A stretch of DNA of 64,000 nucleotides from Candidatus Woesearchaeota archaeon (GCA_016185945.1 JACPMR010000002.1:10999-74998); one strand, 5' to 3'. Positions 22,324 through 42,457 are shown, numbered from the stretch's first letter. Program-made: numbers and translations. The notes: a model not told the origin generated them from the sequence alone.

Positions 22324-22465
22324 TTTCAATCCGGCTTTGCCAAATTCTAGTGCTCGGCAAAACTTCCCTTTCAATCAGTTTTGCCTCGCCTATATATTCA
22401 ATAAAAAATAAAAAGCGGTTTACTTTCTTCACGCTTACATCCAAAAGTCGCTCTCGTTTTTTTGA
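22324..22465 (+). repeat. element copy C (subfamily 2)
   Basis: ttcaatccg, then ctcGGCAAAACT...AGTTTTGCCtcgcctatatattcaataaaa...aaagtcgctctcg. Confidence 0.6.
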
Positions 22466-22550
22466 TTTAAATTTTTTAATGAGTTTTAGTATTGTTTTAA
22501 TTTTTATTGATGAATTTTTTATTGATATTTGTTTTGAAATCTTTTTTAAC

Positions 22551-23507
22551 TTAATAATCGGGAAAATGCTCGAACTTGTGCCTTGCCTCGATAAATCTGA
22601 CTGTCTTTGTCTTTGCGCGCATTACAATTGAGTGTGTTTTTGCCCCGCCGCTCAGGAATTGCACTCCTTTGAGGATTGTTCCGTCTGTAACTCCTGTTGC
22701 CGCGAACATCGCCTCGTCGCTTTTAACCAATTCATTCATTGCAAGCTTTTTGTCAAAGTCAGTTATCCCCATTTTTCTAGCTCTTGCCTTTTCTTCCTCG
22801 TTCCTGAAATTTAATCTGCCCTGAATTTCGCCGCCAAGGCACTTAAGCGCAACTGCTGCGATGACGCCTTCCGGAGCCCCCCCGATTCCCATTAAAATAT
22901 CAACCCCTGAATCCTCGATTGCAGGCGCCAATGCTCCTGCTATATCCCCGTCTCTTATCAACTTGATTCTTGAGCCGCATTTTCTGATTTTTTCAATCAT
23001 TTCTTTATGCCTGTCTCTATCCAAGATTATTACAGTTACCTCGTCAATCGGCTTATCTAACTTCTCAGCAACTGCTTTAAGATTCTCTTCAACAGAAGCA
23101 TCCAAATCGACAGTGCCAACACATTCAGGGCCGACAGCGATCTTGTCCATGTAAGTGTCAGGGGCATTTAACAAGCAACCAGAAGGAGCAGCGGCAAAAA
23201 CAGACATCGCATTTGGGTCTCCTCTTGCTGTGATTGTTGTGCCTTCAAGAGGGTCTACAGCAATATCGAGCTTTGTGTTTCTGCCTGTGCCAACTTTTTC
23301 ACCAATAAAAAGCATTGGGGCTTCATCTCTTTCGCCTTCACCGATGACAATCGTGCCGTCCATGTCAATAATGCTGAAAGATTTTCGCATTGCCTCAACT
23401 GCAGCTTGGTCTGCTGCCTTTTCATTGCCTTTTCCCATCCAGTAAGCTGAGCTTATTGCAGCCGCCTCTGTGGCTCTTACAAAGTCCAAAGCAAGATTCC
23501 TGTCCAT
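22551..23507 (-). CDS. glpX: fructose-1,6-bisphosphatase class II (GlpX type)
   Basis: GlpX-like sequence throughout (GEGERDEAP, DPLEGTT, MGIGGAPEGV). Confidence 0.85.
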   Translation of the reverse strand: MDRNLALDFVRATEAAAISSAYWMGKGNEKAADQAAVEAMRKSFSIIDMDGTIVIGEGERDEAPMLFIGEKVGTGRNTKLDIAVDPLEGTTITARGDPNAMSVFAAAPSGCLLNAPDTYMDKIAVGPECVGTVDLDASVEENLKAVAEKLDKPIDEVTVIILDRDRHKEMIEKIRKCGSRIKLIRDGDIAGALAPAIEDSGVDILMGIGGAPEGVIAAVALKCLGGEIQGRLNFRNEEEKARARKMGITDFDKKLAMNELVKSDEAMFAATGVTDGTILKGVQFLSGGAKTHSIVMRAKTKTVRFIEARHKFEHFPDY

Positions 23508-23617
23508 CTAACCCCCAATCGGGTGTTTTTTTCACGTTATATATAAATCTTTCCATTTGTCATATCTCATCATACAAAAAACAAAAACTTTATAAATGAG
23601 CTTAAAAATAACCCCAA

Positions 23618-24499
23618 TTGAGGGTGGTGAATTTCGTGAAAGAGCGCATTACTATAACCCTTGACAAGAATCTGATAAATCAGATAGACAAAAGGATAGA
23701 CGGCATTGATATAAAGAACAGGTCGCAGGAGGTAGAGTTTCTACTTGCAGAGGCGCTTGGCACGCACATTCCTAGCAAAGCAGTTCTCTTGGTTGGAGGC
23801 AGAGGCACGAGATTAAGGCCTTTGACAGACAAAACGCCAAAAGCATTGCTTGAGGTGCAGGGCAAAACCATTACAGAACATTTGTTTGATTTGCTGAAAA
23901 AATACGGGATAAGGGAATGTATTTTATGCACAGGTTATCTGAAAGATAAAATAAAGGAGCACTTTGGAGACGGCAGCAAATTTGGAATGAGCATAACCTA
24001 TGTTGAAGAGGATGAACCATTGGGAACGGCTGGACCATTAAAATTGGCTAAAAAATACCTGAATGACAGCTTTATTGTCTCTAATGGGGACGAGTTGAAG
24101 AACATCAACATTCCAAGGATGTTTAGATTGCATAAGAGAAAAAACGCATTGTCTACAATTGCACTTACAACAGTCGATGATCCTTCACATTACGGGGTTG
24201 CACGGCTTGACGGCTCCAGAATCGTTGAGTTTGTTGAAAAACCAAGCAGTCCACCTTCTAATTTAATAAATGCGGGGTTTTATATACTCGAGCCAGAGGT
24301 TATTGACACTATTCCACATGGCTTTGCAATGCTTGAGAAGGATGTTTTCCCAAAGCTTGCACAGCTCGGCAGATTAAGGGGGTTTCCATTTGCAGGGCAG
24401 TGGTTTGACATCGGCAATATAGAAAGGTACAAGATTGCAGAAAAGAGATGGGGAGGCATTGTCCCATTCGAGGAAGACGAGATGGACATCAGGGAATAG
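23618..24499 (+). CDS. sugar-1-phosphate nucleotidyltransferase with N-terminal ribbon-helix-helix-like segment (start uncertain; TTG/GTG start)
   Basis: LVGGRGTRLRPLT pyrophosphorylase loop. N-terminal ERITITLDKNLINQIDKRI...EVEFLLAEAL resembles a CopG/RHH fold. Confidence 0.75.
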   Translation: MRVVNFVKERITITLDKNLINQIDKRIDGIDIKNRSQEVEFLLAEALGTHIPSKAVLLVGGRGTRLRPLTDKTPKALLEVQGKTITEHLFDLLKKYGIRECILCTGYLKDKIKEHFGDGSKFGMSITYVEEDEPLGTAGPLKLAKKYLNDSFIVSNGDELKNINIPRMFRLHKRKNALSTIALTTVDDPSHYGVARLDGSRIVEFVEKPSSPPSNLINAGFYILEPEVIDTIPHGFAMLEKDVFPKLAQLGRLRGFPFAGQWFDIGNIERYKIAEKRWGGIVPFEEDEMDIRE

Positions 24500-24533
24500 A
24501 AAAATAGTTAAATAAAAAAATGGTAATTTCTTT

Positions 24534-25880
24534 ATGCTCTCAGAAATATTCAAAGCATACGATGTAAGGGGGATTTACGGGCAAAATCTTACTGAGGAAA
24601 CAGCTTATAAAATCGGTAGGGCTTTTGTCTGCTTTCTCAAGTGCAAAGACGTGATTGTAGGGACTGACATGAGAGAATCCTCGCCAAAACTCAGCAAGGC
24701 ATTCATGAAGGGTGTTGCAGAACAAAGAGCAAATGCAGTTTTCATAGGAGAGGTTTGCACAGATGCCGTTTATTTTGCCTCGGGATTTTTGAATAAGCCG
24801 GCTGTGATGTTTACTGCCTCTCACAATCCACCCCAATGGAATGGAATTAAATTCTGCAGAGAAAATGCAATACCCATAAATGAAGACACCGGATTAAAAA
24901 GGATAAAGTCAATAATTGAAAATAATGAATATAGTAAAAAAACGGCAAAAAAACAAGGAAAAATAATCAAAAGAGATGTATTAAAAAACTATGTAGCTCA
25001 CGTCAGGAAATTTATTGATATTAAAAAACTGGGAAAATTAAAGATTGCAGTTGATGCGGGCAATGGGATGGCTGGAAAGATGATTCCATTGGTTTATAAA
25101 AATCTTCCAATTAAGATTATTCCTATTTATTTCAAACTCGACGGGACTTTCCCGAACCATCCTGCTGACCCGTCAAAATATGAAAACCTTGTTGAATTGC
25201 AGAAAATTGTAAGAGAGCAAAACTGCGACTTTGGAATAGCTTTTGATGGCGATGCCGACAGGATATTTTTCGTAGATGAAAATGGACATGTAATAAACAG
25301 TTCTCTTATATCGGCATTGATAATAAAAAATATATTAGCAATTAGCAATAAGCAAAAAATAATTTACAATGCAGTGTGCAGCCATATAGTGCCTGAGACG
25401 ATAAAAAAATACGGAGGCACCCCGATCATCGAAAGAGTGGGACATTCCTTCATAAAGGAAACGATGAGAAAAACAAAGGCGATTTTTGCATGTGAGCATT
25501 CAGCACATTATTATTACAAGGGGAATTTCCGGGCTGACTCCGGCATAATAACAAGCTTGATTATGTCCGAGATTATCTCAAAGGATAATAAGCCATTGTC
25601 ACAATTGCTGGAGGAATTCGGGGTTTACCATACAATAGAAGAAACCAATGTGGATGTAAAAGACAAAAGTGCAAAATTGAGGGAAATCGAAAACATTTAC
25701 AAAAAACAAGACCCTAAAAAAATATCAAAGCTCGACGGTATCACTATTGAATTTGATGCCTGGTGGTTCAATGTCAGGCCTAGCAATACAGAGCCATTGC
25801 TGAGGTTAAATTTAGAAGCGGATTCTGAGGAATTGATGAAAGAGAAAAAAGAGGAATTGCTTAATTTAATGAGAAGTTAA
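24534..25880 (+). CDS. phosphomannomutase/phosphoglucomutase
   Basis: YDVRGIY N-terminus. Active-site TASHNPPQWNGIKF. Confidence 0.88.
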   Translation: MLSEIFKAYDVRGIYGQNLTEETAYKIGRAFVCFLKCKDVIVGTDMRESSPKLSKAFMKGVAEQRANAVFIGEVCTDAVYFASGFLNKPAVMFTASHNPPQWNGIKFCRENAIPINEDTGLKRIKSIIENNEYSKKTAKKQGKIIKRDVLKNYVAHVRKFIDIKKLGKLKIAVDAGNGMAGKMIPLVYKNLPIKIIPIYFKLDGTFPNHPADPSKYENLVELQKIVREQNCDFGIAFDGDADRIFFVDENGHVINSSLISALIIKNILAISNKQKIIYNAVCSHIVPETIKKYGGTPIIERVGHSFIKETMRKTKAIFACEHSAHYYYKGNFRADSGIITSLIMSEIISKDNKPLSQLLEEFGVYHTIEETNVDVKDKSAKLREIENIYKKQDPKKISKLDGITIEFDAWWFNVRPSNTEPLLRLNLEADSEELMKEKKEELLNLMRS

Positions 25881-26865
25881 ATGTTTTTGTAGATATTGGT
25901 ATTGTTAAAAAATTATTTGGATTATATTGAAATATTGCAGGAACTGGTTTAACAAGGTGATCTATGGTATATTGTTGGCTCAAAGATTTTTGAGCTTGCA
26001 TATCAAATCCATAATAAGACGAGTCACTAGCATTTCTCCTAGGAGTAAAGCGTCCTCGCAAATAGTCACTGATAAATTCGGCAATTATCTCTCCATGGTT
26101 GAATGCGAAATTGCCAGCCTCAATGTTCTTGACAACCTTTTCAAGCGACATGACGGCAGGTATGCCTGCGTCAGGCGCCATTCCTGAAGAAGAAACTGCT
26201 TTCCAGTCTTCCTTCGATTTCACTTGTATAACATAAACAAAATTATTTGATTCGTATCCATTGAAGTAATCCTTGGCAACATAAACCGGCTTCGGATTTT
26301 CCTTCAAAGAGTCTAGCAATATTGTCTGCGCCTTTTTGTTAACTATTTCTTCCTTTATTTCCCTTACAAGCGCTTCCAAGCTTGATTCATTTTCTTCAAT
26401 GCCTCCTCCGACAAGCGAAAACTTCCCTATTTCGCTTTTTATTGGATAATCATACGACTTAATCTCCAAGTAGAATTTAATTTTGCCTGTCTTGGGGTCC
26501 CTGTAGAGAATTACTGCAATTGCCCCGTCAATATTCTCGTACTTAACTTGATTTTCTTTTTTGTTTGATTTTCTGTAGTTTCGTGAAGAACCTTCATTTT
26601 TGTAAGGAGATTTATCGTCTTGTTCTTTTCTATCTTTTCTGTGATTGACATGCCTACCAGATTTGGAGCCATTGGAAGTGTCTTTATCTTCATTAGCTGT
26701 TCTTCTTTCTGCTCTTGAGGATTTGGACTCGTAATTTTTATCGTTTAGCCTGCGCTCTATACCTCTTCTTTCATTAGGGGTGTTAGTCCTATGGCTATCT
26801 CCAGCATCTTCTTCTACTCTTTCTTCCAGCCCTTCACGCTCTGCAACTTCAGCAGCTTCTTCCAT
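25861..26865 (-). CDS. Nudix hydrolase with ~115-aa highly charged disordered N-terminal extension
   Basis: Nudix box GGGIEENESSLEALVREIKEEIV. N-terminal E/R/K/S/N-rich low-complexity region. Confidence 0.7.
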   Translation of the reverse strand: MEEAAEVAEREGLEERVEEDAGDSHRTNTPNERRGIERRLNDKNYESKSSRAERRTANEDKDTSNGSKSGRHVNHRKDRKEQDDKSPYKNEGSSRNYRKSNKKENQVKYENIDGAIAVILYRDPKTGKIKFYLEIKSYDYPIKSEIGKFSLVGGGIEENESSLEALVREIKEEIVNKKAQTILLDSLKENPKPVYVAKDYFNGYESNNFVYVIQVKSKEDWKAVSSSGMAPDAGIPAVMSLEKVVKNIEAGNFAFNHGEIIAEFISDYLRGRFTPRRNASDSSYYGFDMQAQKSLSQQYTIDHLVKPVPAIFQYNPNNFLTIPISTKTFNFSLN

Positions 26866-26934
26866 TTTTGCAAAAATTTGATTATTATATAGTGGTAAAT
26901 ATGCATTAAGGAATTTAAAAATTTATCGTTGTTT

Positions 26935-27024
26935 TAGAAAATGACATTAATTATTGGACATTTGTGTCATTTTCTAAGATAGTAAGTGACAAATAAATGC
27001 CCTAAAACTTGTGTCACTTACTAT
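26935..27024. promoter_or_regulatory. two adjacent perfect long-spacer palindromes (AGAAAATGACA-N20-TGTCATTTTCT and TAGTAAGTGACA-N20-TGTCACTTACTA) upstream of the Pop5/exosome superoperon
   Basis: Read directly. Both share a TGACA...TGTCA core. About 120-210 bp upstream of the ATG at 27144. Confidence 0.5.
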
Positions 27025-27143
27025 TTGGCTGACTTTTACCAAATAAAACTACAAAACCCAAAACTTTAAATACTATTTAATAATACTCCAGCCTAACAGA
27101 GAGAAGAGAATGGCGTTATTATATTTCTTCTCATAATAGTGAG

Positions 27144-27509
27144 ATGATAAAGACAAAATTAAAGCCTATTTTGCCAAGCCTGAGGGAAAAAAAGCGCTAT
27201 CTGGTATTCGAGATAATTTCAAAAGAGAGGGTAGAAGACGCTGGCGCTGTTTCAAACGCAATATGGGGCTGTGCATTGAAGTTTCTGGGACAGCTTGGCA
27301 CTGCCAAAGCAGGAATTATGGTGCTTAACAACAAGTGGAATGCAAAGCTTCAGAGAGGCGTCATAAAAGTCAGCCACAAGCATGTCGATGCCTTAAAGGC
27401 GGCATTGATTTTTGCTGGCGGGATTGACAACACAGAGGTTATATTTAAGAGTGTGGGCGTGTCGGGCATATTAAGAAAAGCCGAACGAAAATATTTAAAT
27501 GCTTTGTGA
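27144..27509 (+). CDS. rnp2: RNase P protein component 2 (Pop5/Rnp2)
   Basis: LPSLREKKRYLVFEI matches the archaeal Pop5 N-terminus. Position in the exosome superoperon. Confidence 0.75.
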   Translation: MIKTKLKPILPSLREKKRYLVFEIISKERVEDAGAVSNAIWGCALKFLGQLGTAKAGIMVLNNKWNAKLQRGVIKVSHKHVDALKAALIFAGGIDNTEVIFKSVGVSGILRKAERKYLNAL

Positions 27510-27554
27510 ATTATGGTTACTTAAAAAGAATTAACAAACGAGGTGCAATAAAAA

Positions 27555-28304
27555 ATGCAACAGCCAATGCCGCATCAATTGATGGGATACGACAGGGCAA
27601 TCACAATGTTCAGCCCTGATGGAAGATTACTTCAAGTAGAGTATGCCAAAAAGACTGTAAGACAAGGCTCTACAGCCATAGGAATGGTATGCTCTGACGG
27701 GGTTCTGCTGGTTGCCGACAAGAGAGTTGTTGACTCATTAGTTGTCCCGGAATCTGTTGAGAAAATATGGCAGATTGACGAGCATATAGGAGCTGCTGCT
27801 TCAGGGATTTTGAGCGATGCCAGAGTGCTGATTGACAGGGCTCAATTAAGAGCGCAGCAAAACAGGGTAACTTATGATTCTGAAATCGATACTTTGACGA
27901 TTGTCAAGGACATGTGCGACTTAAAGCAGATTTGCACCCAAAGCGGCGGCTTGAGGCCATTTGGTGTTTCTGTTCTGGTTGCAGGCATCGACAACCATAC
28001 CCCCAAGCTCTTTGAGACAGACCCGATAGGAATTTACTTTCAATACAGGGCAACGGCAATAGGCGAGGGCGAAATTGAGGTAGAGGAAATATTGCACAAC
28101 GAATACAAGCAGGACTCTACAATAGAAGAGGGCTTGAAATTGTCGTTAAAAGCCCTGAAAAAGGTGCTCGGAGAGAATTTTAACATAGAGAGAATCGATG
28201 CAGCATACATCAACTCGGCAGATAAAAAATTCAGAAGATTCGCAAAACAAAGATTAGAGAAAGTAGCGTCAGAGTTAAAGGATGAGAAAAAAACAAAGAA
28301 ATGA
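27555..28304 (+). CDS. psmA: proteasome alpha subunit
   Basis: YDRAITMFSPDGRLLQVEYA signature. Confidence 0.92.
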   Translation: MQQPMPHQLMGYDRAITMFSPDGRLLQVEYAKKTVRQGSTAIGMVCSDGVLLVADKRVVDSLVVPESVEKIWQIDEHIGAAASGILSDARVLIDRAQLRAQQNRVTYDSEIDTLTIVKDMCDLKQICTQSGGLRPFGVSVLVAGIDNHTPKLFETDPIGIYFQYRATAIGEGEIEVEEILHNEYKQDSTIEEGLKLSLKALKKVLGENFNIERIDAAYINSADKKFRRFAKQRLEKVASELKDEKKTKK

Positions 28305-28312
28305 CGGGATAG

Positions 28313-29017
28313 ATGATGGTTACAGTTGATCAGGCGATAATTGCAAGGTTAAAGGCGCATGGGCAAAGCTTTGAGATTCTTGTTGACTGCAACAATGCGC
28401 TTGCCCTGAGGGACGGCAGGGAAATGGACATGCGCGACATTCTTGCAGCCATGCAGATTTTCTCTGATGCCAAAAAGGGCTTGGTTGCTTCTGAAAACGC
28501 AATGCGGCAGATTTTCGGCACAAGCGAAGTTGATGATGTTGCAAGGCAGATTATACAGAAAGGAGAGATACAATTAACGCAGGAGTACAGGGAAAAATTA
28601 AGGGAGGAAAAAAGAAAGCAAATCATCGCAATAATTCATAGAAACGGCGTTGACCCAAAAACGCATTTGCCGCATCCTCCGCAAAGGATTGAGAACGCAT
28701 TTGAGGAAGCAAAGCTCCATGTTGACGAGTTCAGGTCCGTGCAGGAGCAGGTGCAGGAAGCGTTAAAGAAGCTAAGGCCGATTTTGCCGATTAAATTTGA
28801 GGTCAAGGAGATCGCAATCAAGATTCCGCCGGAGTATGCCCCAAAATGCTATGCCCCTGCAAAGCAATTCGGCACGATATTGAGAGAAGAGTGGCAAAGC
28901 AATGGCTACTGGGTTGCTGTTGTCGAGCTGCCAGGCGGCATGGAAAATGACCTTTACGACAGGTTAAACAAGATATGCCATGGAAATGTGGAAAGCAAGG
29001 TTTTGAAGATTAAGTGA
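28313..29017 (+). CDS. sdo1: ribosome maturation protein SBDS/Sdo1
   Basis: SBDS-family sequence. Conserved superoperon position. Confidence 0.8.
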   Translation: MMVTVDQAIIARLKAHGQSFEILVDCNNALALRDGREMDMRDILAAMQIFSDAKKGLVASENAMRQIFGTSEVDDVARQIIQKGEIQLTQEYREKLREEKRKQIIAIIHRNGVDPKTHLPHPPQRIENAFEEAKLHVDEFRSVQEQVQEALKKLRPILPIKFEVKEIAIKIPPEYAPKCYAPAKQFGTILREEWQSNGYWVAVVELPGGMENDLYDRLNKICHGNVESKVLKIK

Positions 29018-29112
29018 TTGAAAATTTAAGAATATGCAATATCAACGAAAAATAATATAAAAAGTAATATTCAAACGACAAAAACAATAAAAATTCAAAA
29101 TATCAAGCATAG

Positions 29113-29823: not shown

Positions 29824-29830
29824 TATTAAC

Positions 29831-31314: not shown

Positions 31315-31363
31315 TTGTTAAAACGAAAGATTTTTATAGTTTTATCACTTCTTAATAACTAAA

Positions 31364-32526: not shown

Positions 32527-32904
32527 TTATTTCCTTCCAAAATAAAAGAACTTGTCTATGCTCACATCATCCGGCTGATAATCTCCGTATCTTGGCTTTA
32601 TGGGCTCTGAGTTTTTTGCAGCTCCGCTTTGGAATTCTTCCTTTCTTTCATCTTCAGGTCTGCAGTCAACAATTCCCACCTCTTTTTTTGGTTTGATACT
32701 CGGCTCTTCTATGAGTTTTTTCTGGACAGAATGTTGGGGCTGGAATTGCAATCTAGAAATCTGGCTTTTCAATGAGCCAATCTCGCTGTTCAAGGAAACA
32801 ACATACTCCTTTAATGCTTGAATCTCCTGCTGCAGCTTCTTTGTCGCCATCTCAATCATTAACTCAAATCTTTTCTGAGTGAAAGCATCAAGCTGTTGTT
32901 CCAT
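32527..32904 (-). CDS. coiled-coil protein, hypothetical
   Basis: 125 aa. N-terminal heptads. Confidence 0.4.
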   Translation of the reverse strand: MEQQLDAFTQKRFELMIEMATKKLQQEIQALKEYVVSLNSEIGSLKSQISRLQFQPQHSVQKKLIEEPSIKPKKEVGIVDCRPEDERKEEFQSGAAKNSEPIKPRYGDYQPDDVSIDKFFYFGRK

Positions 32905-32943
32905 TTTTGTTAACCTTTTGATAACCTTATTTATTTAAATATA

Positions 32944-33146
32944 TTCAATCCGTTGCTTCGCAACAATATTTAGTGCTCACCCTCACTTTTCTGCCAGTGG
33001 CATGCGAGGCTCGCGAAGAGACTCGCTCGCCAGTCACCCGTTCGGGCTCGCCTATCATTCAATAACAAAATCAAAAGCTGGTCTCCTTCATCGCTTGGGG
33101 AATCTAAAGGAAGCTCTCGTGATTGTTTTGAATTAGTTTATTGTTA
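32944..33146 (+). repeat. element copy D (subfamily-2 3' end plus the internal module)
   Basis: ttcaatccg GTTGC-TTCG-GCAAC. Same internal module as B with gtggc in place of gtgac. Confidence 0.6.
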
Positions 33147-33963: not shown

Positions 33964-33978
33964 CTTTTTTAATTGTGT

Positions 33979-34212: not shown

Positions 34213-34242
34213 TTTTGCCTCAATAAAAATAAAAAATAAAGA

Positions 34243-35617: not shown

Positions 35618-35956
35618 TCAATAATCAAACCTTGGATCCATAGAATCTTTAATCAAATCATTCTCGTCTTTGTACTTCTTGACATGCATCAATCTTGTCT
35701 TGCCGCAGTATGGGCACCTTAATTCTTTAGGAGAACCTTTTCTTACGGAGAACTTGAATCTGCAGTTTACGCAGATAAAGTCAACTTTCTGCCCTTCATC
35801 GGCTTTTTCAATGCTCAGCTTTTCTTTCTTCTCTATTTTCTGCTGCTTTTCAAGGCAGTTTATGCAAATAATCCTGTTGTCAGAGTCGTATTTGATATGG
35901 TCGAAGTCAAACTCGTTCCTGCAACGAGAGCACGTATACATTGTAGTTAGAGGCAT
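35618..35956 (-). CDS. double zinc-ribbon protein, hypothetical
   Basis: CSRC...CINC and CVNC...CPYC. Confidence 0.5.
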   Translation of the reverse strand: MPLTTMYTCSRCRNEFDFDHIKYDSDNRIICINCLEKQQKIEKKEKLSIEKADEGQKVDFICVNCRFKFSVRKGSPKELRCPYCGKTRLMHVKKYKDENDLIKDSMDPRFDY

Positions 35957-36090
35957 TTTAACTCTAAACTTAATTCATTATTTTAGAATTATAAATAATT
36001 TTTGGTTTTTGTAAAGTAAGTTCTAGATTTTTTGATTTAATTTTTAATGTGTTTTTATTGAGTTTTTATTTTATCTTAATGTTGTATTAA

Positions 36091-37629
36091 CTATTTCCTA
36101 ACCTTTCCTTTCTCAATCTCCTCTGCAATATGCTCTATCTCGTGCATATTAGTCAATTCGTGCTTCTCTTTTTTTGGCGAAATATTTTTATCAATATACT
36201 TCAACAATCTTTTTTTGTAAGCCTCTGCTTCTTTTTTGTCGATTGTTTTCTGTTTTTTTGGTTTTATTTTAGTTAGTGTTTGCTTTATTTTTTCCTTTGC
36301 CTTTCTGTATTTTCCAATAACCTCGTAGACAAGCCCTTCGCTTGGCCTTATTGTGAGATATTTCTTGAAGAAAGAATGCCCTACATCTAATTCTATCAAC
36401 CTTGCCTCCTTCAGAGTTGGAAGTAGCGTAAGCGATGCAATCAATCTCAAAATTCCAGAAATTAAAAACACAATAGGGATGCTAGAAATAAAAATCCATG
36501 CAGGCAGTTTGCCTATCAGAAATCCTCCGAGCAAAGCGCCTGCGAAGGTTGCAATGCCTTCAAAGAACTTGTAGTATGCTATGCATCTTACCCTGTTTTC
36601 CGGCTTCACCGAATCAAATATAAAATTGGAGGAGCTTAAATTGAAACCAGCCCATGCAATGCCCGAGAATATTTCAATTGCAATCAAATAATAAAGATTA
36701 GAGGAAAAAAGCCAGAGCAATGGCACAATTGGAGTTAGCATGCCTGTAACATACAAAACAAGTTTTGTGCCTCGAGTATCGATAAGATTGCCCCAAATGC
36801 CAAGTGCCAAGAAACTCGCAATCATCTCTGCCGCAAGTATAAAAGTGAACTGTAAGTAACTCAATCCCAAGTCTTTTAGCATGTATACGGCAAAAAACGG
36901 CGCTGCTATGTTTACAGCAAACTTAAACAAGGTTATGTAAATGACAAAATGCCCGTAATTGGTTTTGTCCATTCTCTTTACAAAATCAATAAGAGAGAAC
37001 TTTTCTGCATGCTCCAAATCAGGAGGGAGATTATGCATCATGCCCTTAAAAATACCAGAAACCAATCTTGCGAAAAATGCTACTGAGAAAAGTATAGTAA
37101 AGCCGAGGAAAGGGTGCTTTGGCGAGAAATGGTTTAAAATAAAGCCGGCAATCAGCGCAGCAACAAATGAAGTTGCTCCAACAATTCTATTGCGAAGCCC
37201 AAAAAACCTGCCCCTTTCATACTTTGGCACTAAGTCGCCCATTAAGGAGTTCCAAACGGGGTTGATTAATTGCGCAAAGATTGTCTGCAAGGTAACATAA
37301 ACTATTAACAAATATTTCTGGCTTGGAGTTACGTATGGGATAAGCAAGAGCGGAATCCATAAAATTGCATGAAAAAAAGAGCTTGCAACAAGTATTTTTC
37401 TCCTGTCCTTTAAAATCTCGACAAGCTTTGTTGCGAAAAGCTGGATAAATGCGCCTACTAATTGAGGAACATAAGTTAAAGCTGCAATCAAATTAACAGA
37501 CGCGTTTAACGCAACAGCAAAAGGTGTAAGGAAAGAAGCGGTAAAGCCGTCCATTACTGCAAAAGCTGCTCCATCATAAATTGAATACCTCAAACTCTTT
37601 TTGATATTATCTTCTGTCATTTTAATCAC
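36091..37629 (-). CDS. MFS transporter with C-terminal K/E-rich tail
   Basis: 12 TM pattern. 512 aa. Confidence 0.7.
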   Translation of the reverse strand: MIKMTEDNIKKSLRYSIYDGAAFAVMDGFTASFLTPFAVALNASVNLIAALTYVPQLVGAFIQLFATKLVEILKDRRKILVASSFFHAILWIPLLLIPYVTPSQKYLLIVYVTLQTIFAQLINPVWNSLMGDLVPKYERGRFFGLRNRIVGATSFVAALIAGFILNHFSPKHPFLGFTILFSVAFFARLVSGIFKGMMHNLPPDLEHAEKFSLIDFVKRMDKTNYGHFVIYITLFKFAVNIAAPFFAVYMLKDLGLSYLQFTFILAAEMIASFLALGIWGNLIDTRGTKLVLYVTGMLTPIVPLLWLFSSNLYYLIAIEIFSGIAWAGFNLSSSNFIFDSVKPENRVRCIAYYKFFEGIATFAGALLGGFLIGKLPAWIFISSIPIVFLISGILRLIASLTLLPTLKEARLIELDVGHSFFKKYLTIRPSEGLVYEVIGKYRKAKEKIKQTLTKIKPKKQKTIDKKEAEAYKKRLLKYIDKNISPKKEKHELTNMHEIEHIAEEIEKGKVRK

Positions 37630-37872
37630 TCAAAAAAGAGAGAACTAGCAAAAATCATTCATATTTAAATTCGCTTCTTTTTTCAATGTCATTTTTGTAT
37701 TAATGTTTCTCCGCATTCGGGGCAATACCGCTCCTCTGAACCAATTTCTGCTCCGCATAAAGGGCATTCAAGCGCTTGTTTCATAATAAATTATTTTATA
37801 AAACAAGTATTTAAAGTTAGCGATTAAAATTCCAAAAATATACTTAAACTACATAAAATTTCAACAATAAAA

Positions 37873-38043
37873 ATATTTCAAACAACTTCGCTTCCCAGCA
37901 TCTGCAAAGGTTAGTGGGAGCCCAGCTCAGGAATTTTTGCCTATCCATTTCAAATATATAGGCGCCGAGGGGGAGCACAAAATAATGCAACTTTAACATC
38001 TAAATGCCGAGGCGCACTAGAATTCGCCGAAGGCGAATTGAAA
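37873..38043 (-). repeat. element copy E (subfamily 1, reverse orientation)
   Basis: Reverse complement reads ttcaattcg CGCC-TTCG-GCG ... cctatatatttg ... ttcctgagctgggctccca ... tgggaagcgaagtt. Confidence 0.6.
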
Positions 38044-38473
38044 TTTTAAGATTATAAAAGATTAAAAACAAAATCAATAAGTTGATAGAGCAGATTGAAT
38101 CAAAGATTTAAAATCATAAGAAAATCTTAAAATAAATTTATAAAAAAGCCACCCCCAACACCAAGCTGGGGGCAACCACACACAAAGAGGTTTTGAGTCA
38201 AAAGAGGGTTACTGACTCTTTGCCTATGCTTATAAATTATTCATCACCTTTAACTTATCACCTCCGATTTTTTAATCGCCTTCCAAACCAATGAAAATAA
38301 AAAGCACCTCATAAAGAGGTGCCACACACTTGGAGATGTTTTGATGATATCTAGGCAATAGCTTAAACGAGGGTTTATAAATACCCTGTGAAAGGCTGTT
38401 AGAGAGAAAACCTACAGAACTATCTTTCATAAGCTTTTTAAATGGATGTTTTTAAGCTGCCTGTGTGGGTTAA

Positions 38474-39208
38474 GTGGTAAAGCTCGTATATTCTCCGCAA
38501 TGGTTTTATGGAAAGGACATATTGATTGATTTAGTTAGCATTTTTGTTCTGTGTATGATAGCGCTGTTCAGCATAAAATCATATAAAATCAGGAAAAACA
38601 GGAATTACTTGTATTTGGCACTATCGTTTGGGCTTTTAGCTGTGTCTTTCTTGTTTAAGATATTAATGAATTTTAACATTTATTTTAAGTTTCTTGAAAA
38701 AAGTCAGCTTGGAGCAATAACAGAAACCTACCACGCAATGAGGGCGTCAAATTCTATCTTTCCAATATCATTCTTGTTTTACTGGCTTTTGACTCTTTTT
38801 GCCGTCTATGTGCTTTATTCCATATATGAAAAGCAGTCGATATCAAATCACCTGCTTAATATTTATCTTATATTCGTATCAACTTATCTTAGCTATCCCG
38901 ATTATTACGTATTCCACATCACGCTTTTGGTTCTGCTGGCTTTGGTAACCTTTGTTTATTCAAGAAAGTATTTAAACACAAAACATTTTGCTACTAAACT
39001 AGCGGCATACAGCTTCGGCATAATTGCAGCAAGCCAGATATTTTTTATATTAGTGAACATAAGCAATTACTTTTATGTGGTAGGCGAGCTTGTTCAATTG
39101 ATTGGGTATGCTGTTTTGCTCTCCACTTTTATCATGGTGCTAAAGTATGGCAGAACGAAGGACACGCACAGACATAATAGGCGATATGCTTACTTCTATA
39201 CTAGATAA
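38474..39208 (+). CDS. polytopic membrane protein, hypothetical
   Basis: 244 aa with ~7 hydrophobic helices. Confidence 0.5.
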   Translation: MVKLVYSPQWFYGKDILIDLVSIFVLCMIALFSIKSYKIRKNRNYLYLALSFGLLAVSFLFKILMNFNIYFKFLEKSQLGAITETYHAMRASNSIFPISFLFYWLLTLFAVYVLYSIYEKQSISNHLLNIYLIFVSTYLSYPDYYVFHITLLVLLALVTFVYSRKYLNTKHFATKLAAYSFGIIAASQIFFILVNISNYFYVVGELVQLIGYAVLLSTFIMVLKYGRTKDTHRHNRRYAYFYTR

Positions 39209-39419
39209 AGGAGGGAAAATCAAGCCAACCCACCTTATGTATAAGTCGAATCTTGCCCATAGCCAGATGATTGGCTACCTTAATGAGCTCATTGAAAAGG
39301 ATTTGGTAAAGAAGGTAAAGACAGAAAAGGGCGAAGTTATAACCATAACCGACAAAGGATGCGAGTTAGTGAAGAAACTGAAAGAGATTAAAGAGTTTGA
39401 GAAGGCGTTTGGGCTGTAG
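39147..39419 (+). CDS. small winged-helix DNA-binding protein (start probably an internal Met)
   Basis: 90 aa, helix-turn-helix-like. Overlaps the upstream ORF end by ~60 nt in another frame. Confidence 0.4.
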   Translation: MAERRTRTDIIGDMLTSILDKGGKIKPTHLMYKSNLAHSQMIGYLNELIEKDLVKKVKTEKGEVITITDKGCELVKKLKEIKEFEKAFGL

Positions 39420-39420
39420 T

Positions 39421-40420
39421 TTAAGTTATTTTATAAGTTCCCGGCTTCATAAACACCTTTTCCGTTTTGACAGCAAGTCCTTTTTCTCCAAGCATTTCCT
39501 TTGAGTTCATTTGTGATGTACCAAGTGCTATTAGCTCATTTTTTAGAGTCATTATAGCCACTACGCTATTCTGATTTATTCCACTTTCTACTTTACTTAT
39601 TCCAGGCACTTTCAAGTCAACGCCGTGGCATAAACTTTCAACAGTTGTGTCGAAAACCCAGATTTTTGGAAGGTGATTTACGCCATTTTCAACCAGCTGG
39701 ATTACTTTTCTGATGAATCTCTCATTGTTTTCTTCCTTCCAGAAATGATATGCGTCCTGAAGTTCGTGCAGCGTGAATAAAGTTGATTCGTCAAAAGGGC
39801 CTGCTTTTGTTCTTCTCAATTCAGCCATATGCGCGCCTGTGCCAAGTTTTTTTCCGATGTCGTGAATCAATTTTCTTATGTAAGTGCCTGCCTCTGTGCC
39901 GACTTTGAACAAAACATCCTTTCCGTCAATTTCAAGAATGTCAAGATAATAAACTGTTCTTGTCCTTAACTGCCTTTTGACAGAGCTTTTAATAGGGGGC
40001 AACTGCTCAATTTTTCCGATGAAATGCTTTTGAATTGTTTCCCTTAATTTTTCCTCTTCGACTTCCTTGTGCAAGTGCATTATTGCAACATACTCCTTGC
40101 CTGCTGTCAAAAGCGCTTGCACAATCCTTGTTGCTCTGCCTAAAGCAATTGGAAGAACTCCGGTTACTGCGGGATTTCTCTGATTTTTACTCTAGAGTCC
40201 CAGAGTGACCAGATTTAGTTATTCCGAGTATTTTTTGCACGTAGTCAGCGACCTGATGGCTTGTTGGACCTTTCGGTTTATCTATGTTTATGATTCCATA
40301 ATTTATTATCCCTTCTGTTTTCCTGTCCTCAGGTTTACAACCATATCCTTCGCCTGTCTCTGCTTCTTTCCGAACAAGGACTTTTCTTTCTATTCTTTCA
40401 AATGGTAACAGATTTTTCAT
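39421..40420 (-). CDS. cbf5: tRNA/rRNA pseudouridine synthase Cbf5 (TruB family), interrupted: exon 1 40191-40420, exon 2 39421-40174 (327 aa if 16 nt removed)
   Basis: Track ORFs 40187-40420 (...KSGHSGTLE*) and 39421-40122 are contiguous Cbf5. Removing 40175-40190 restores [23 protein letters not shown] with the catalytic Asp. Confidence 0.8.
40175..40190 (-). other. 16-nt intervening sequence in cbf5 (candidate bulge-helix-bulge-type archaeal intron; alternatively an indel)
   Basis: Pre-mRNA GGGACUCUAGA|GUAAAAAUCAGAGAAA|UCCCGCAG. GGGA pairs with UCCC and CUCU with AGAG, leaving an AAA bulge at the 3' junction. Confidence 0.45.
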
Positions 40421-40459
40421 ATAGAAAAAGAAAGTTTATTCTTTTAAAAATTTATTCAA

Positions 40460-40996
40460 TCAAACACTTCTAGGAGCAGTCGGATGCGTTTCCTGCATCT
40501 TCGGCTTTTGGGGGGCTTTCGGAGCATGTACTTTTGGATGCTCTTTCTTCAGTTCTTTAATTTCTTCCTGCTCAATTTTCTTTGCCTCTTCTGCTTTTTC
40601 CTCTTTTATCTCCTCGACTTGTTTTTCAAGTTTCTCTTCCGGTTTTTCTTCCGCCTTTTTCTCTTCTTTCTTAACTACTTTCTTTTTTTCCTCTGCCTTC
40701 GGCTCTTCTTTTGGCGCCCCCACAAGCTCGACAAAAACTTTGCCTTTGTCGTCTTTGGCTGCGTTCACTTTAACTTTGTGTGGCGGGTTTTTTGCGCCAT
40801 GGTTCCACACAGCAAGGTTCAGATATTTGCCGATAACGACATTATCGGATTTCATGTGCCTCGAGATGAAAGCCCTTATTGTCTTGACTGCTTTGTTTGC
40901 TTTCTTGAACGGAGGAACTTTCAGAGTTTCCCTTCTAAGCGGGATTATGTAAACTCTTTCCAACACCAGTTTTGGGGTTTCTTCTTTTTTTGGCAT
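40460..40996 (-). CDS. rpl31e: ribosomal protein L31e with ~90-aa K/E/A-rich C-terminal extension
   Basis: RVYIIPLRR...AVWNHGAKNPPHKVKV core, followed by a low-complexity tail. Confidence 0.8.
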   Translation of the reverse strand: MPKKEETPKLVLERVYIIPLRRETLKVPPFKKANKAVKTIRAFISRHMKSDNVVIGKYLNLAVWNHGAKNPPHKVKVNAAKDDKGKVFVELVGAPKEEPKAEEKKKVVKKEEKKAEEKPEEKLEKQVEEIKEEKAEEAKKIEQEEIKELKKEHPKVHAPKAPQKPKMQETHPTAPRSV

Positions 40997-41007
40997 CTTA
41001 TGCTTTC

Positions 41008-41171
41008 GTCTTGTTCCTTCTCCAGCTTCGCTTTAGTTTTGTGTGCCTGCCCGGATGGATTTTTCGAGTTTTGCCGTATATTTTTGGCACTGTCCAAAAA
41101 GGAGCCCATCTTGTCTGCTTCCTGAATCTTGCCAATCTTTTCTTCCTGCTTGGATGCTTGTAGCGTGCCAT
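41008..41171 (-). CDS. rpl39e: ribosomal protein L39e (53 aa; absent from ORF track)
   Basis: MARYKHPSRKKRLARFRKQTRWAPFWTVPKIYGKTRKIHPGRHTKLKRSWRRNKTKA. Stop TAA one nucleotide before the L31e ATG. Confidence 0.75.
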
Positions 41172-41204
41172 TTTTATTTTTTGATTTTAATTATATTTTT
41201 TATT

Positions 41205-41352
41205 TTTTCAATCCGTCCCTTCGGGACAATGTTTACTGCTCGGCAAAACTTTCCCTTTCAATCAGTTTTGCCTCGCCTATAAATCCAATAAAACGTCAAA
41301 AGCTGGTCTCCTTTATTATGATTACTTTCAAAGGACGCTCTCGTGATTGTTT
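41205..41352 (+). repeat. element copy F (subfamily 2)
   Basis: ttcaatccg GTCCC-TTCG-GGAC, then the same core as C. Confidence 0.6.
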
Positions 41353-41391
41353 GAATTTTTTAATTTTGTAAATTATCGTATATTTTTTGCT

Positions 41392-41727
41392 TTAAACTCT
41401 CTTGATTTTGATTTCCTTCTTCCTTGGAGTCATCTGCCCCAAAAGTTTTTTCAATGTTGAATCATCAATCTTGCCTTGAACCTGCCCTTTTTGTATTGCC
41501 TGAAACAAGACAACAAGCAGCTGCAGTGCTTTCTCTCGATGCGCTACCTTCAAATTTCCGTATCTTGCCAGTGCCTCTTTTGTGAAAAACTGCCTTACGA
41601 TATTTTCCATCGCCTCTATCTGCTGCTGTATCTGCGCCTGCTCTTGTGCCTGCTGCTGTAATTTTTCTTGCTGCAGCCTCATCAATTCTTCGAGCTTCTT
41701 TTTCCTTATTTCATCAAGGGTCGGCAT
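41392..41727 (-). CDS. PDCD5/TFAR19-like dsDNA-binding protein
   Basis: 111 aa with the family's helical pattern. Conserved neighbourhood with S19e/L39e/L31e. Confidence 0.6.
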   Translation of the reverse strand: MPTLDEIRKKKLEELMRLQQEKLQQQAQEQAQIQQQIEAMENIVRQFFTKEALARYGNLKVAHREKALQLLVVLFQAIQKGQVQGKIDDSTLKKLLGQMTPRKKEIKIKRV

Positions 41728-41732
41728 TTGGC

Positions 41733-42269
41733 TTATTCTTTCTTTTCCTCTGCTTTCTTGACAGCTTTTTGTTCCTGCTTAACTTCGGCCACTTCTTTTT
41801 TAGCTTCAACTATTTCAGGAACTTTTATTTCGTGCTTTGGCTTAATGCCTTGAATTTGAACTGCAATCTTGTCCAAAAATGACTTGCCTTTTGGTGTAAC
41901 AACTCTTCCTTTATGAACACCTTTTTCTACAAATTTAACAAAGCCCGCTTTCTCAAGCTGCTGCAGTGATTTTCTCAAAATGTTTCCTGAGCCCTTGTAG
42001 AAATGCTCCTTTTTATGCCCCCTGTTTTTTTTGCCGCCATACTTTGCCCTCAGCTTCGAAACTCCGACAGGACCAAGCCGATAAATAGCTCTAAGAACAG
42101 AAGCTGCCCTTACATACCACCAGTCATTATTCACAGGAGGGCGTTCCTTGTGCATTCCTGTCTTTACAAATGAAGCCCAAACAGGGGGATTTATCTCAGG
42201 AACTTTTTTCAGCTCTTCGGCTGTCTTTGAAACCAATTCCTGCGCATCAACATCGTACATTGTTGTCAT
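41733..42269 (-). CDS. rps19e: ribosomal protein S19e with K/E-rich C-terminal extension
   Basis: [22 protein letters not shown] core. ~40-aa low-complexity tail. Confidence 0.85.
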
Positions 42270-42315
42270 TTTTTTGTTAAATTTTTTATTTGATTTTTAA
42301 TTATTATTTTTTAAT

Positions 42316-42457
42316 ATTTCAATCCGCTCACTTCGTTCGCAAACTTTACTGCTCGGCGAAATTTGCCTGCCACTAAATTTCGCCTCGCCCATATATGCAC
42401 TAAAATCATCAAAAGCGGTTTACTTTAATCACTTGCTACATATAAAAGTCGCTCTTG
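42316..42457 (+). repeat. element copy G (subfamily 2, compensatory variant)
   Basis: ttcaatccg. Core hairpin GGCGAAATTT/AAATTTCGCC in place of GGCAAAACT/AGTTTTGCC. Confidence 0.55.

Follow-up and report, generated by a model that had tools for sequence, protein, structure and literature searches.

Several kinds of small intergenic repeat have been described, among them the Correia elements of Neisseria, which are promoter- or terminator-bearing MITEs, and the modular BOX elements of pneumococci. The REP/BIME sequences of bacteria are short extragenic palindromes that carry the tetranucleotide GTAG or CGTC as a tag at their 5' end (PMC3733652). Among DNA structures, mini-hairpins of the d(GCGNAGC) type greatly exceed the equivalent RNA hairpins in stability and occur in single-strand priming signals (CCGAAGG), and the hairpin promoters of the phage N4 virion RNA polymerase have a 5-bp stem with a GAA or GGA loop (PMC13037366; PMC3201870).

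The window analysed here, a stretch of 64,000 nucleotides, is chromosomal DNA of a Woesearchaeota archaeon, and its repeats do belong to a family of intergenic elements, about 75 bases long and not described before, that occurs in many Woesearchaeota (DPANN archaea). The motif TTCAATCCG occurs seven times in the window against 0.68 expected, and when near-matches are allowed the repeats number nine, spanning 8.6-51.2 kb. The preliminary description had counted eight over a narrower range, copy I being absent from its list. All nine are intergenic, and the genes that flank them are housekeeping genes. A covariance-model search assembled 104 units from the window and from loci of at least 22 other archaeal genome assemblies, and a pattern search of genome contigs returned at least 111 matches, about 70 of them in AT-rich archaeal assemblies (at least 22 genomes). 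Rfam 15 gave no match at the gathering score, and at E ≤ 1 only a weak, unrelated one to sR4.

The core unit, U (about 75 nt), opens with the head TTCAATCCG and hairpin 1, whose stem of 2–6 bp carries a loop of 3 nt. A constant linker of 10 nt and GCTC lead on to hairpin 2, which is about 30 nt long, and TCGCCTAT follows. Hairpin 2 has arms of 9–10 bp and a loop of 10–12 nt that contains YTGCCAYT; it is preceded by GC-TC and followed by TC-GC, after which comes the tail CTAT(A/T)(A/T)AT. The tags CGGATTGAA and AUAGGCGA flank the core. Linker length is 10 nt in 83/104 units and hairpin 2 measures 29–32 nt in 84/99, and the motifs that look single-stranded (head, linker, loop and tail) are highly conserved. 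With its long arms and loop, hairpin 2 is a poor candidate for extrusion from duplex DNA. Units stand alone, form tail-to-tail pairs (11 among the 104 units) or are fused to a V or W module. A direct repeat bounds the unit (TTCAAT-CCG...CCTATWTA-TTCAAT), and composite elements run from TTCAATC to GATTGAA, that is, between inverted heads, with the V-side end often degenerate. The window contains the following features.

8730-8788, minus strand: core U of copy I, head TTCAAACTG at 8788, short hairpin 2 (nhmmer and covariance model, E = 5.7e-5)
8650-8703, minus strand: V module of copy I, hairpin GCG-GTTC-ACTTT...AAAGT-CGC-TCTCG, then a T run
13087-13174, plus strand: core U of copy A, hairpin 1 GTC-TGC-GAC (covariance model, E = 0.0045, and folds)
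13175-13270, plus strand: W module of copy A, TTCAGGCAAACTTTCCTGAGCTGGGTTCCCA...TGGGAAGCGACGTTGATTGAA
19938-20054, plus strand: core U of copy B, head TCCAATCCG, hairpin 1 GTTGC-TTC-GCAAC (covariance model, E = 4e-11, and fold)
20055-20135, plus strand: W module of copy B
22325-22396, plus strand: core U of copy C, hairpin 1 GGC-TTT-GCC, hairpin 2 GGCAAAACT/AGTTTTGCC (covariance model, E = 2.7e-15)
22413-22470, plus strand: V module of copy C, with T7 after it
32905-32943, minus strand: TATA-like spacer from the head of copy D to the ATG at 32904, CGGATTGAA followed by TATATTTAAATAAATAAGG...AAAATG
32944-33058, plus strand: core U of copy D, with an inserted hairpin as in copy B (covariance model, E = 1.5e-11)
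33075-33135, plus strand: V module of copy D, ending in GTGATTGTTTTGAA
37955-38042, minus strand: core U of copy E (start 38042), head TTCAATTCG, hairpin 1 AATTCGCC-TTC-GGCGAATT (covariance model, E = 0.0088, and fold)
37875-37954, minus strand: W module of copy E
41207-41283, plus strand: core U of copy F, hairpin 1 GTCCC-TTC-GGGAC (covariance model, E = 2.4e-17)
41300-41360, plus strand: V module of copy F
42318-42395, plus strand: core U of copy G, hairpin 1 GC-TC-AC-TTC-GT-TC-GC (covariance model, E = 3.2e-15)
42413-42468, plus strand: V module of copy G, ending in GGGATTGAA, an inverted copy of the head motif
50977-51071, plus strand: solo core U of copy H, hairpin 1 GTCGTGC-TTC-GCACGAC (covariance model, E = 0.0035)

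Copy A sits between the convergent ORFs 12796-13056 (plus) and 13302-13610 (minus), and its hairpin 2 is of an expanded type closed by GCGCG-TC...TC-CGCGC; in copy B an additional hairpin is inserted within the loop of hairpin 2. Hairpin 1 of copy G holds a tandem TC/TC internal loop, equivalent to tandem G·A on the reverse strand, and in the computed folds forms on that strand only (-23.9 vs -15.2 kcal/mol forward); the corresponding energies for copy F are -24.9 and -19.2 kcal/mol. The head of copy I lies 32 nt from the ATG (~8820) of a plus-strand gene and that of copy H 52 nt from the ATG of a GH57 gene (49720-50925, minus), while about 9 nt, with no terminator among them, separate the tail of copy H from the stop codon of the gene at 51080-52042 (minus).

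As in REP/BIME sequences, these are short, high-copy extragenic hairpin repeats in which a conserved tag stands beside a variable palindrome, inverted pairs are frequent (104 units, 11 tail-to-tail pairs), the structure of one strand is conserved and the sites lie between transcription units. They differ in their occurrence in DPANN archaea, in a unit of about 75 nt that holds two hairpins at constant spacings and in the tag (CGGATTGAA / AUAGGCGA rather than GTAG or CGTC). Furthermore, the element is tied to promoters whereas REPs are enriched at convergent gene ends, its copies are highly diverged within a genome, and no RAYT transposase was found among 779 ORFs. Small size, modularity, intergenic location, inverted ends, outward promoters and terminators and the capacity to split operons are shared with Correia and BOX elements; in contrast to these, there is no clear target-site duplication, the terminal inverted repeats are just 7–9 bp and often degenerate, and the internal hairpins are kept by covariation with no recent expansion. 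The ends of IS200/IS605 elements and their miniature derivatives also carry subterminal hairpins on one strand, with no long inverted repeats and a pentanucleotide (here TTGAA, folded strand) that occurs at one end and immediately beyond the other. Unlike those, the present copies are old and diverged, their boundaries are putative and no associated tnpA or tnpB was seen. An integron attC site (R''/R', RYYYAAC...GTTRRRY, flanking cassettes) was rejected given the ends TTCAATCCG and CCTATWTAT and the housekeeping neighbours.

Identity between copies averages 0.53 within assemblies (maximum 0.90) and 0.56 between them. There is no sign of recent bursts of spread, and the near-identical copies expected of a recently transposed DDE-type MITE are absent, identity within genomes being no higher than between genomes. 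Comparison with relatives revealed sites with and without the element. The GAPDH–AlaDH spacer that holds copy B is 329 nt here and 38–65 nt in relatives; GlpX and FBA, at the site of copy C, are 282 nt apart here and 19 nt apart or overlapping in L120 and L119; and L001, L002 and L005 have no element at the site of copy D, the two neighbouring genes being separated there by 8–20 nt. Some of these 'empty' sites contain remnants (L118 and L120), that in L118 comprising hairpin 1 and the head at the copy C site. A motif heuristic found no Y1-type (RAYT/HUH) ORF among 779 ORFs (contigs, ~590 kb), a Pfam scan of 30 window ORFs found no transposase of Y1 type, and the AT-rich flanks of the elements contain no clear target-site duplication.

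We then compared the pairing of the stems in all 104 units with controls. Pairing is found in 92.5% of the paired cells against 71.7% in shuffles, double-sided changes number 307 against 86 (none of 500 shuffles reached 307), and slid controls pair at 31–53%. At one site, the orthologous copies of four species have their motifs in common while both stems differ, with compensation. These data show that both hairpins are maintained by compensatory change, also in place at orthologous loci. The preliminary description had proposed a hairpin of differing stem after CCG, which we recover in B and D (GTTGC/GCAAC), F (GTCCC/GGGAC), H (GTCGTGC/GCACGAC) and E ((AATTC)GCC/GGC(GAATT)), and a compensated variant of the second hairpin, which is likewise present (GGCAAAACT/AGTTTTGCC in C and F, GGCGAAATTT/AAATTTCGCC in G). 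Pairing was also preserved far above chance in the wider sampling. Copies A, C and G, described as having no hairpin, one with a different loop and a less regular one respectively, do have regular ones as listed above. Of the proposed RNA-level selection, the part that stands is structure-preserving selection on the stems, with massive covariation and the orthologous site in four species; the UUCG tetraloop signature does not.

The loop of hairpin 1 is 3 nt long in 92/100 units. The TTCG loop reported earlier was written with one G too many, the real form being GTTGC-TTC-GCAAC with a triloop closed by C-G. The letters TTCG after the 5' arm do recall a UNCG (UUCG) tetraloop, but the G is paired. 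We rejected a UNCG tetraloop hairpin RNA on the grounds that the arms are symmetric about TTC; a TTCG loop closed by C-G would leave a 1–2 bp stem, with mismatches at the next positions. The classic UUCG tetraloop is defined by a 4-nt loop closed by C-G. On the reverse strand the loops read G-N-A in 79/100 units (GAA in 72), and the closing pair is C-G in 90/94.

Wobble pairs are a hallmark of RNA helices. In the repeats they are nearly absent from both strands, at 0.4% forward (6/1443) and 0.9% reverse (13/1443), with no significant difference. The non-Watson-Crick cells among the 1443 are T·C/C·T (88), A·C/C·A (13), G·T/T·G (6) and other (8), and the 19 transition-type mismatches, set against the 8 other mismatches, are explicable without wobble tolerance. 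The G·U argument made from copy D (GUGGC/GUCAC) was based on two copies of the inserted module, for which alternative pairings exist, and does not extend to the family. A structured RNA with frequent G·U intermediates was rejected on the same counts, strong as the covariation is. Depletion of G·U is also possible under strong selection on short RNA stems.

The main non-Watson-Crick class, T·C/C·T on the plus strand, corresponds to tandem G·A on the opposite strand. Of the 104 units, 95–101 have a basal TC/TC internal loop; additional tandem TC/TC loops interrupt 11 copies of hairpin 1 and 25 copies of hairpin 2. The reverse strand is the more stable in 96/104 units with RNA parameters and in 98/104 with DNA parameters. 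The recurrent non-canonical features (C-G-closed G-N-A triloops, tandem G·A) would make sense only on the complementary strand, and the folding strand is probably the complement of the one read in the preliminary description, i.e. the sense strand of the downstream gene. Read on this strand, hairpin 1 would become a mini-hairpin with a G-N-A triloop closed by C-G, and the conserved internal loops would all consist of tandem sheared G·A. RNA, too, has tandem G·A and loops closed by G·A.

In archaeal promoters the BRE comes before an A/T-rich TATA box, which lies ~26–30 nt ahead of the start. Of the heads, 67 point at the start of a gene and 28 at the end of one, which means that not every unit can serve a promoter. 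Heads lie 29–40 nt from the ATG of genes without a Shine-Dalgarno sequence (leaderless-type) and 43–50 nt from those with GAGGTG; a tRNA gene in L073 begins 33 nt past a head. Directly past the head the consensus is the TATA-like (A/G)WTTTAAAA. In element-free leaderless genes of the same genomes the TATA hexamers end 20–29 nt before the ATG, and the head geometry agrees with these promoters. These data place the head at a fixed distance of ~31–35 nt from the inferred start of transcription for the gene pointing away, the position of the archaeal BRE.

In co-directional spacers the orientations stand at 40:12, the folded strand being the sense strand in 40/52, a bias also predicted by an RNA element in read-through transcripts. 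A further 12–16 units lie between divergent genes, with no upstream transcript. Given that the core usually lies between terminator-like T runs and a promoter, little transcription is expected there. The sense-strand T runs between V' and U' are mostly just 3–4 T, so that transcripts may continue into U'. A plus-strand RNA hairpin is suggested by the downstream V module alone, which lies 23–25 nt past a TATA-like box, is followed by T5–7 and contains a few (three) U·G pairs. In tail-to-tail pairs, the first paired bases of a unit follow ~30 nt downstream of its partner's TATA-like tail.

These data lead us to favour, tentatively and at a little less than even confidence, a modular, promoter-linked structured repeat of Woesearchaeota that works as DNA mini-hairpins. 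Given the near-absent wobble, the strict 3-nt loops and the place between terminator-like T runs and a promoter, the hairpins would act as single-stranded DNA structures in the promoter-upstream region and not as a UUCG-capped small RNA. They may form a supercoil-dependent or protein-recognised structure that sets up or insulates the adjacent outward promoter, and the V hairpin with T5–7 would cap the TATA-like box that the tail carries. DNA was here judged against RNA from indirect signs. Counting against this reading are the poor fit of hairpin 2 to extrusion, the 28 heads that point at gene ends, and the fact that tandem G·A, depleted G·U, the 40:12 orientation and the weak T runs could also go with an RNA. 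To our knowledge, no archaeal protein or polymerase uses such DNA hairpins.

A serious rival, though on balance improbable, is a cis-acting RNA, transcribed on the strand of the flanking genes and folding into two hairpins with GAA triloops and tandem G·A. Such an RNA would arise by read-through from the upstream gene or from a TTGAA-TAAATAGG box at the tail, and would either stabilise 3' ends or insulate, just ahead of the next promoter, or form a structured leader, in the manner of REP/BIME sequences on bacterial mRNAs. The covariation, orthologous sites included, the better folding of the sense strand, the 40:12 orientation, the weak T runs before U', the stop codon next to copy H and the TATA-like tail upstream of paired units are all consistent with it. 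However, reverse-strand G·U (13/1443) is not significantly above forward G·T (6), the units between divergent genes have no upstream transcript, Rfam holds no match, and 92% of the hairpin 1 loops are 3 nt, whereas selection on RNA usually yields GNRA or UNCG tetraloops (PMC13037366). By comparison, a plus-strand small RNA of 60–200 nt starting at TTCAATCCG with UUCG-capped covarying hairpins, as first proposed, is very improbable. The stems do covary and the V module has the appearance of a plus-strand RNA hairpin, but the loop is the 3-nt TTC, the conserved internal loops would on that strand consist of tandem U·C/C·U, forward G·U accounts for 6 of 1443 cells, the plus strand is the weaker folder in 96/104 units, and upstream of the head lie the promoter and start of a divergent gene.

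Strictly Watson-Crick pairing would also suit a purely selfish mobile element (REP/RAYT, IS200/IS605-derived palindromes or MITEs) whose hairpins are single-stranded DNA recognition sites for a transposase, e.g. Y1 HUH, with promoter and terminator parts that only render insertions harmless. We consider this unlikely. The element-free sites of copies B, C and D with adjacent flanking genes, the direct repeat TTCAAT at both bounds, the subterminal hairpins at fixed spacings on one strand, the eleven BIME-like tail-to-tail pairs and the inverted GATTGAA heads ending the composites all point towards such an origin. Against it, copies are as diverged within a genome as between genomes, with no recent-burst signature, no target-site duplication was established, no Y1-type ORF was found by the motif heuristic or among the Pfam-scanned window ORFs, and TTGAA is no typical promoter target in element-free promoters. 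Remnants at 'empty' sites suggest loss as much as gain. In addition, old copies are still 92.5% paired and orthologues are compensated, which indicates that selection acts at each locus. The least probable of the readings is one without folding, in which the unit is a duplex-DNA platform for transcription factors and the inverted repeats are dyad-symmetric operator sites. The fixed position upstream of the BRE/TATA region and the highly conserved head, linker, loop and tail motifs agree with it, but operators conserve sequence, while here the arms vary freely and complementarity is kept, and where the symmetry fails, it is invariably through the same purine-purine pairs of one strand.

To return to the favoured promoter-linked DNA mini-hairpins, a broader proposal, which we regard as speculative and rather unlikely, is that DPANN archaea use locally maintained single-stranded DNA mini-hairpins (G-N-A triloops, tandem G·A) as the working part of a portable promoter module, flanked by the head promoter and by a divergent promoter at the tail, the latter capped with a terminator of its own. 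If true, cellular TBP/TFB-type transcription would here have a promoter or insulator element that depends on structure, a use so far known only from the phage N4 polymerase and priming signals. The N4 virion RNA polymerase promoter is a template-strand hairpin centred ~11 nt before the start, with a stem of 5–7 bp and a purine loop of 3 nt. Our repeat resembles it in stem and loop, but the hairpin centre is ~45–50 nt upstream of the inferred start rather than at -11, the hairpin is on the non-template strand and the host uses TBP/TFB-type promoters; an N4-type hairpin promoter was rejected by position and strand. The likeness to d(GCGNAGC), as predicted from sequence, lies in a C-G-closed G-N-A triloop on a short G-C-rich stem at a promoter (79/100 loops, 90/94 closing pairs). 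Copies B, D and H contain GCGAAGC exactly, and CCGAAGG is found in many other units.

The repeat family of this window is a promoter-linked, modular, structured element of Woesearchaeota. Its head motif, TTCAATCCG, occurs seven times in the window against 0.68 expected, with six of the seven heading a repeat, and the addition of near-matches and profile searches brings the total to nine copies. About 1 in 7 of the window's intergenic regions bears the element. The repeat reported in the preliminary description is real and bigger than described there, but its specific reading needs correction. The stems that it listed on the + strand (the strand of the unit read head first) are present, while its count of eight omitted copy I.

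Motif starts of the nine copies in the window
Copy I: 8788, minus strand
Copy A: 13087, plus strand
Copy B: 19938, plus strand
Copy C: 22325, plus strand
Copy D: 32944, plus strand
Copy E: 38042, minus strand
Copy F: 41207, plus strand
Copy G: 42318, plus strand
Copy H: 50977, plus strand

Each copy is built on a core of ~75 nt (unit U), downstream of which further modules (V, W) may lie. W is represented by four copies among the sequences analysed, and the alternatives downstream of U are a second inverted unit or other inserts.

Parts of the element, in order on the + strand
Unit U (~75 nt): head TTCAATCCG; hairpin 1; linker AAnnTTWNT; GC-TC; hairpin 2; TC-GC; tail CTAT(A/T)(A/T)AT
Hairpin 2 of unit U: GGC...GCC, with YTGCCAYT in the loop
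V module: AAAAGCGG-TTT-ACTTT...AAAGT-CGC-TCTCG, then a T run
W module: TTCAGGCAAA...CCTGAGCTGGGTTCCCA...TGGGAAGCGACG

A covariance model seeded from 11 gapless units was run over 560 kb and matched 104 units, including all nine window copies. The geometry of the unit is rigid: hairpin 1 has a stem of 2–6 bp and a 3-nt loop in 92/100 units, the linker measures 10 nt in 83/104 and hairpin 2 spans 29–32 nt in 84/99. The loop previously parsed as UUCG is instead a TTC triloop closed by C-G, as in GTTGC TTC GCAAC. Copies A, C and G, thought to be irregular or to lack a hairpin, all have hairpin 1 (A, GTC-TGC-GAC; C, GGC-TTT-GCC), with a TC/TC internal loop splitting the stem in G (GC-TC-AC-TTC-GT-TC-GC). 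Other modules travel with the units after CGCCTAT, namely CCCACTTAACTTGACAGCACC and the hairpin modules CGAAAAT...ATTTTCGAG and ATCGAAAATGC...GCATTTATCGA (loci L110, L034, L064, L061, L073, L087, L029 and L031 of the archaeal assemblies compared), and a GAGCGAAGAGAACTCGCTC-type hairpin sits inside the hairpin 2 loop at L009, L024, L115 and in window copies B and D.

The stem covariation claimed for the family was borne out. Standard pairs fill 92.5% of cells in the 104-unit alignment against 71.7% in column shuffles, a pairing somewhat inflated by fitting the alignment to the model, with a large margin and an alignment-free hairpin parse in agreement. Two-sided changes number 307 cells against 86 in shuffles, none of 500 shuffles reaching 307, and sliding the partner columns lowers pairing to 31–53%. 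Inspection of the units revealed no covariation of the linker (TAGTG/TTGTG/TACTG) with CCAYT in the loop of hairpin 2, and a pseudoknot joining the two was therefore rejected.

By simple ORF calls, the heads of 67 of the 104 units face an outward-pointing gene start, 28 face a gene end and 9 face nothing; in co-directional spacers, orientation with the head towards the downstream gene is favoured 40:12. The head lies 29–40 nt from the ATG of genes without a Shine-Dalgarno sequence (SD) and 43–50 nt from those with GAGGTG. At L073, the unit head at 6513 has an intron-containing tRNA gene (GCGAGGGTGCCCAAGCGG...GGGTTCGAATCCCATCCCTCGC) starting ~33 nt beyond it on the outer side. Directly outside the head is a position-specific consensus, (A/G)WTTTAAAA. 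A set of 240 genes from the same genomes, with neither element nor SD, has the leaderless geometry, their TATA hexamers ending 20–29 nt upstream of the ATG. Together these distances, the consensus and the element-free geometry place CGGATTGAA at the predicted BRE position of an outward promoter, with transcription starts deduced from sequence. The idea that TTGAA is a natural BRE that also serves as the target of insertion was rejected, since the 240 element-free promoters show no enrichment there. A C-box-like cttcATGATG occurs ~10 nt after the head at L051, L111 and L092.

Eleven pairs of units stand tail to tail with both heads outward. The tail carries its own TATA-like box, and the V hairpin starts a fixed 23–25 nt past it. 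On the + strand T5–7 follows V in 27/29 cases, the opposite strand mostly has runs of 3–4 T between V and U, and the few U·G pairs in V form on the + strand. Given this spacing, the T runs and the U·G pairs, V resembles either a terminator hairpin or a tiny RNA of the + strand, fed from the tail box. Units are commonly arranged with the core flanked by terminator-like signals on one side and a promoter on the other.

At sites B, C and D of the window, the element separates genes that are next to each other in relatives: the GlpX-FBA-GAPDH-AlaDH spacers in L119 and L120 measure -4 to 65 nt, and in L001, L002 and L005 only 8–20 nt lie between a TPR gene and a 125-aa gene. The C site in L118 keeps AATGTCCGAAGGACAGATTGAA alone and the B site in L120 a head-like CGGTTTGAA, leftovers that make loss of the element appear as plausible as gain. 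At the end of glpX (window 22551-22570, L118 and L120), the final codons (TTTCCGGATTATTAA or ...TGA) are similar to the head motif CGGATTGAA, right at the position of copy C and its remnant, a likeness that may be due to chance.

The site after an ftsZ-like gene is occupied in four species, with motifs conserved and both stems differing with full compensation. Unit identity there is 66–80%, compared with 74–86% for neighbouring coding and 47–76% for neighbouring non-coding sequence; this divergence lies within the non-coding range, so replacement of orthologous units by other copies need not be invoked. Mean identity is 0.53 between copies within an assembly and 0.56 between assemblies. Compensation in place and the similarity of within- and between-assembly identity indicate that copies are old and individually maintained, which points to function at each locus rather than solely at transposition. 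A ~150-nt non-coding block directly after the stop of an ftsZ-like gene is 84-99% identical in four species and ends in GGTGGCTCAGAAATGGGCCAC then T6. Probably a conserved ncRNA, it has no match in Rfam.

Locations of the ~150-nt block after the ftsZ-like gene
L101: ~6273-6440, minus strand
L114: ~1390-1548, plus strand
L074
L079

We evaluated the folding strand from a tally of pair types over 1443 cells of the alignment.

Pair types in unit stems
Watson-Crick: 1342 cells
T·C or C·T: 88 cells
A·C or C·A: 13 cells
G·T or T·G: 6 cells
Other: 8 cells

Every T·C mismatch belongs to a tandem in which TC faces TC. The base of hairpin 2 almost invariably has one (95–101/104 units), and extra tandems occur inside hairpin 1 in 11 copies and hairpin 2 in 25. 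These are pyrimidine-pyrimidine mismatches on the + strand; on the complementary, gene-sense strand they read as tandem 5'-GA-3'/5'-GA-3' within pyrimidine-GA-purine, a motif well known for its stability. On that strand the hairpin 1 loop is GAA in 72/100 units and G-N-A in 79/100, with a C-G closing pair, and copies B, D and H carry GCGAAGC exactly. RNA parameters predict the complementary strand to be the stabler in 96/104 units, and DNA parameters do so in 98/104. Wobble pairs are near-absent on either strand, and with 19 transition-type mismatches against 8 others no wobble tolerance is needed as an explanation. The d(GCGNAGC) mini-hairpin is extraordinarily stable and its RNA counterpart much weaker, while selection on RNA usually gives GNRA or UNCG tetraloops (PMC13037366, PMC3201870); hairpin 1 likewise presents a C-G-closed G-N-A triloop on the complementary strand. 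Together these features argue against the + strand UUCG RNA proposed initially, which we consider highly improbable; the signals that do favour a + strand RNA, its T runs, U·G pairs and spacing from the tail box, concern V only.

On balance we favour a hairpin of DNA type on the strand complementary to +, and RNA is still compatible with these features. Our preferred reading, held tentatively, is that the hairpins act at the DNA level: gene-sense-strand hairpins resembling DNA mini-hairpins would form part of a portable promoter or insulator module. An RNA element on the sense strand, the strand predicted to fold better under either parameter set, is possible and somewhat doubtful. A purely selfish element recognised by a transposase appears unlikely, as copies are old and kept at each locus. 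A weak motif heuristic over partial genomes revealed no Y1-type transposase. Other structured RNAs were considered and rejected: a tRNA or split tRNA, suggested by the likeness of TTCAATCC to a T-arm (nothing from ARAGORN; no T-stem before the motif); a hammerhead or other ribozyme (CUGAUGA not conserved in A, E and H; no Rfam match); and a K-turn binding L7Ae (tandem G·A without a 3-nt bulge; no Rfam match).

Scanning one genome per prokaryotic species for the exact pattern gave at least 111 stretches. Among the matches listed, ~70 come from archaeal assemblies that are AT-rich and represent at least 22 genomes, mostly labelled Woesearchaeota or Nanoarchaeota and some, by database label, Methanosarcinales; the remaining listed matches are chance occurrences in GC-rich bacteria. 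Virus-borne copies were rejected, as viral contigs gave one chance match only, in a 51% GC contig. The family is not described in the literature searched. In kind it is closest to REP/BIME sequences and promoter-bearing MITEs, here with hairpins resembling DNA mini-hairpins on the gene-sense strand. To our knowledge, gene regulation is almost unknown in Woesearchaeota and other DPANN archaea, which cannot be grown alone. The fixed distance to gene starts and the presence in at least 22 assemblies make the element a handle for promoters and transcription-unit boundaries in Woesearchaeota genomes. It is also a natural test case for DNA-level versus RNA-level structural selection, combining very strong, wobble-free covariation with triloops and tandem G·A confined to a single strand, and a caution for structure-based RNA discovery that covariation alone is silent on the folding strand or nucleic acid.

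The window itself (GC ~37%) is cellular DNA, encoding FtsZ, class I fructose-bisphosphate aldolase, archaeal-type GAPDH, GlpX and alanine dehydrogenase as well as arginine-biosynthesis enzymes, Lhr helicase and an RNase P subunit. Among named relatives, the best for both FtsZ and the aldolase belong to Candidatus Woesearchaeota or Nanoarchaeota, and one protein, encoded on a 121-kb NCBI contig of Woesearchaeota, is listed as 100% identical to the window's FBA. A phage origin was rejected, given these cellular housekeeping genes and a megablast against phage records without match. ARAGORN found no tRNA gene in the window, and an Rfam scan of it gave no family at threshold. The ORF-free stretch listed below may hold unannotated small RNAs and has no significant Rfam match. 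Big repetitive proteins are clustered at 52-61.5 kb.

Further features of the window
38100-38400, minus strand: ORF-free, between copy E and gene 38474+; two GC-rich hairpins then T runs, e.g. ggttgcccccagcttggtgttgggggtggctttttta
45194-45249, plus strand: weak match to sR4 (C/D-box sRNA family), 25.6 bits, E = 0.12, under the gathering score
54828-55825: tandem 153-nt (51-codon) repeats within a large minus-strand ORF, 54552-56558
52051-52350 and 56737-57036: 300-nt repeat, in common with a neighbouring large ORF
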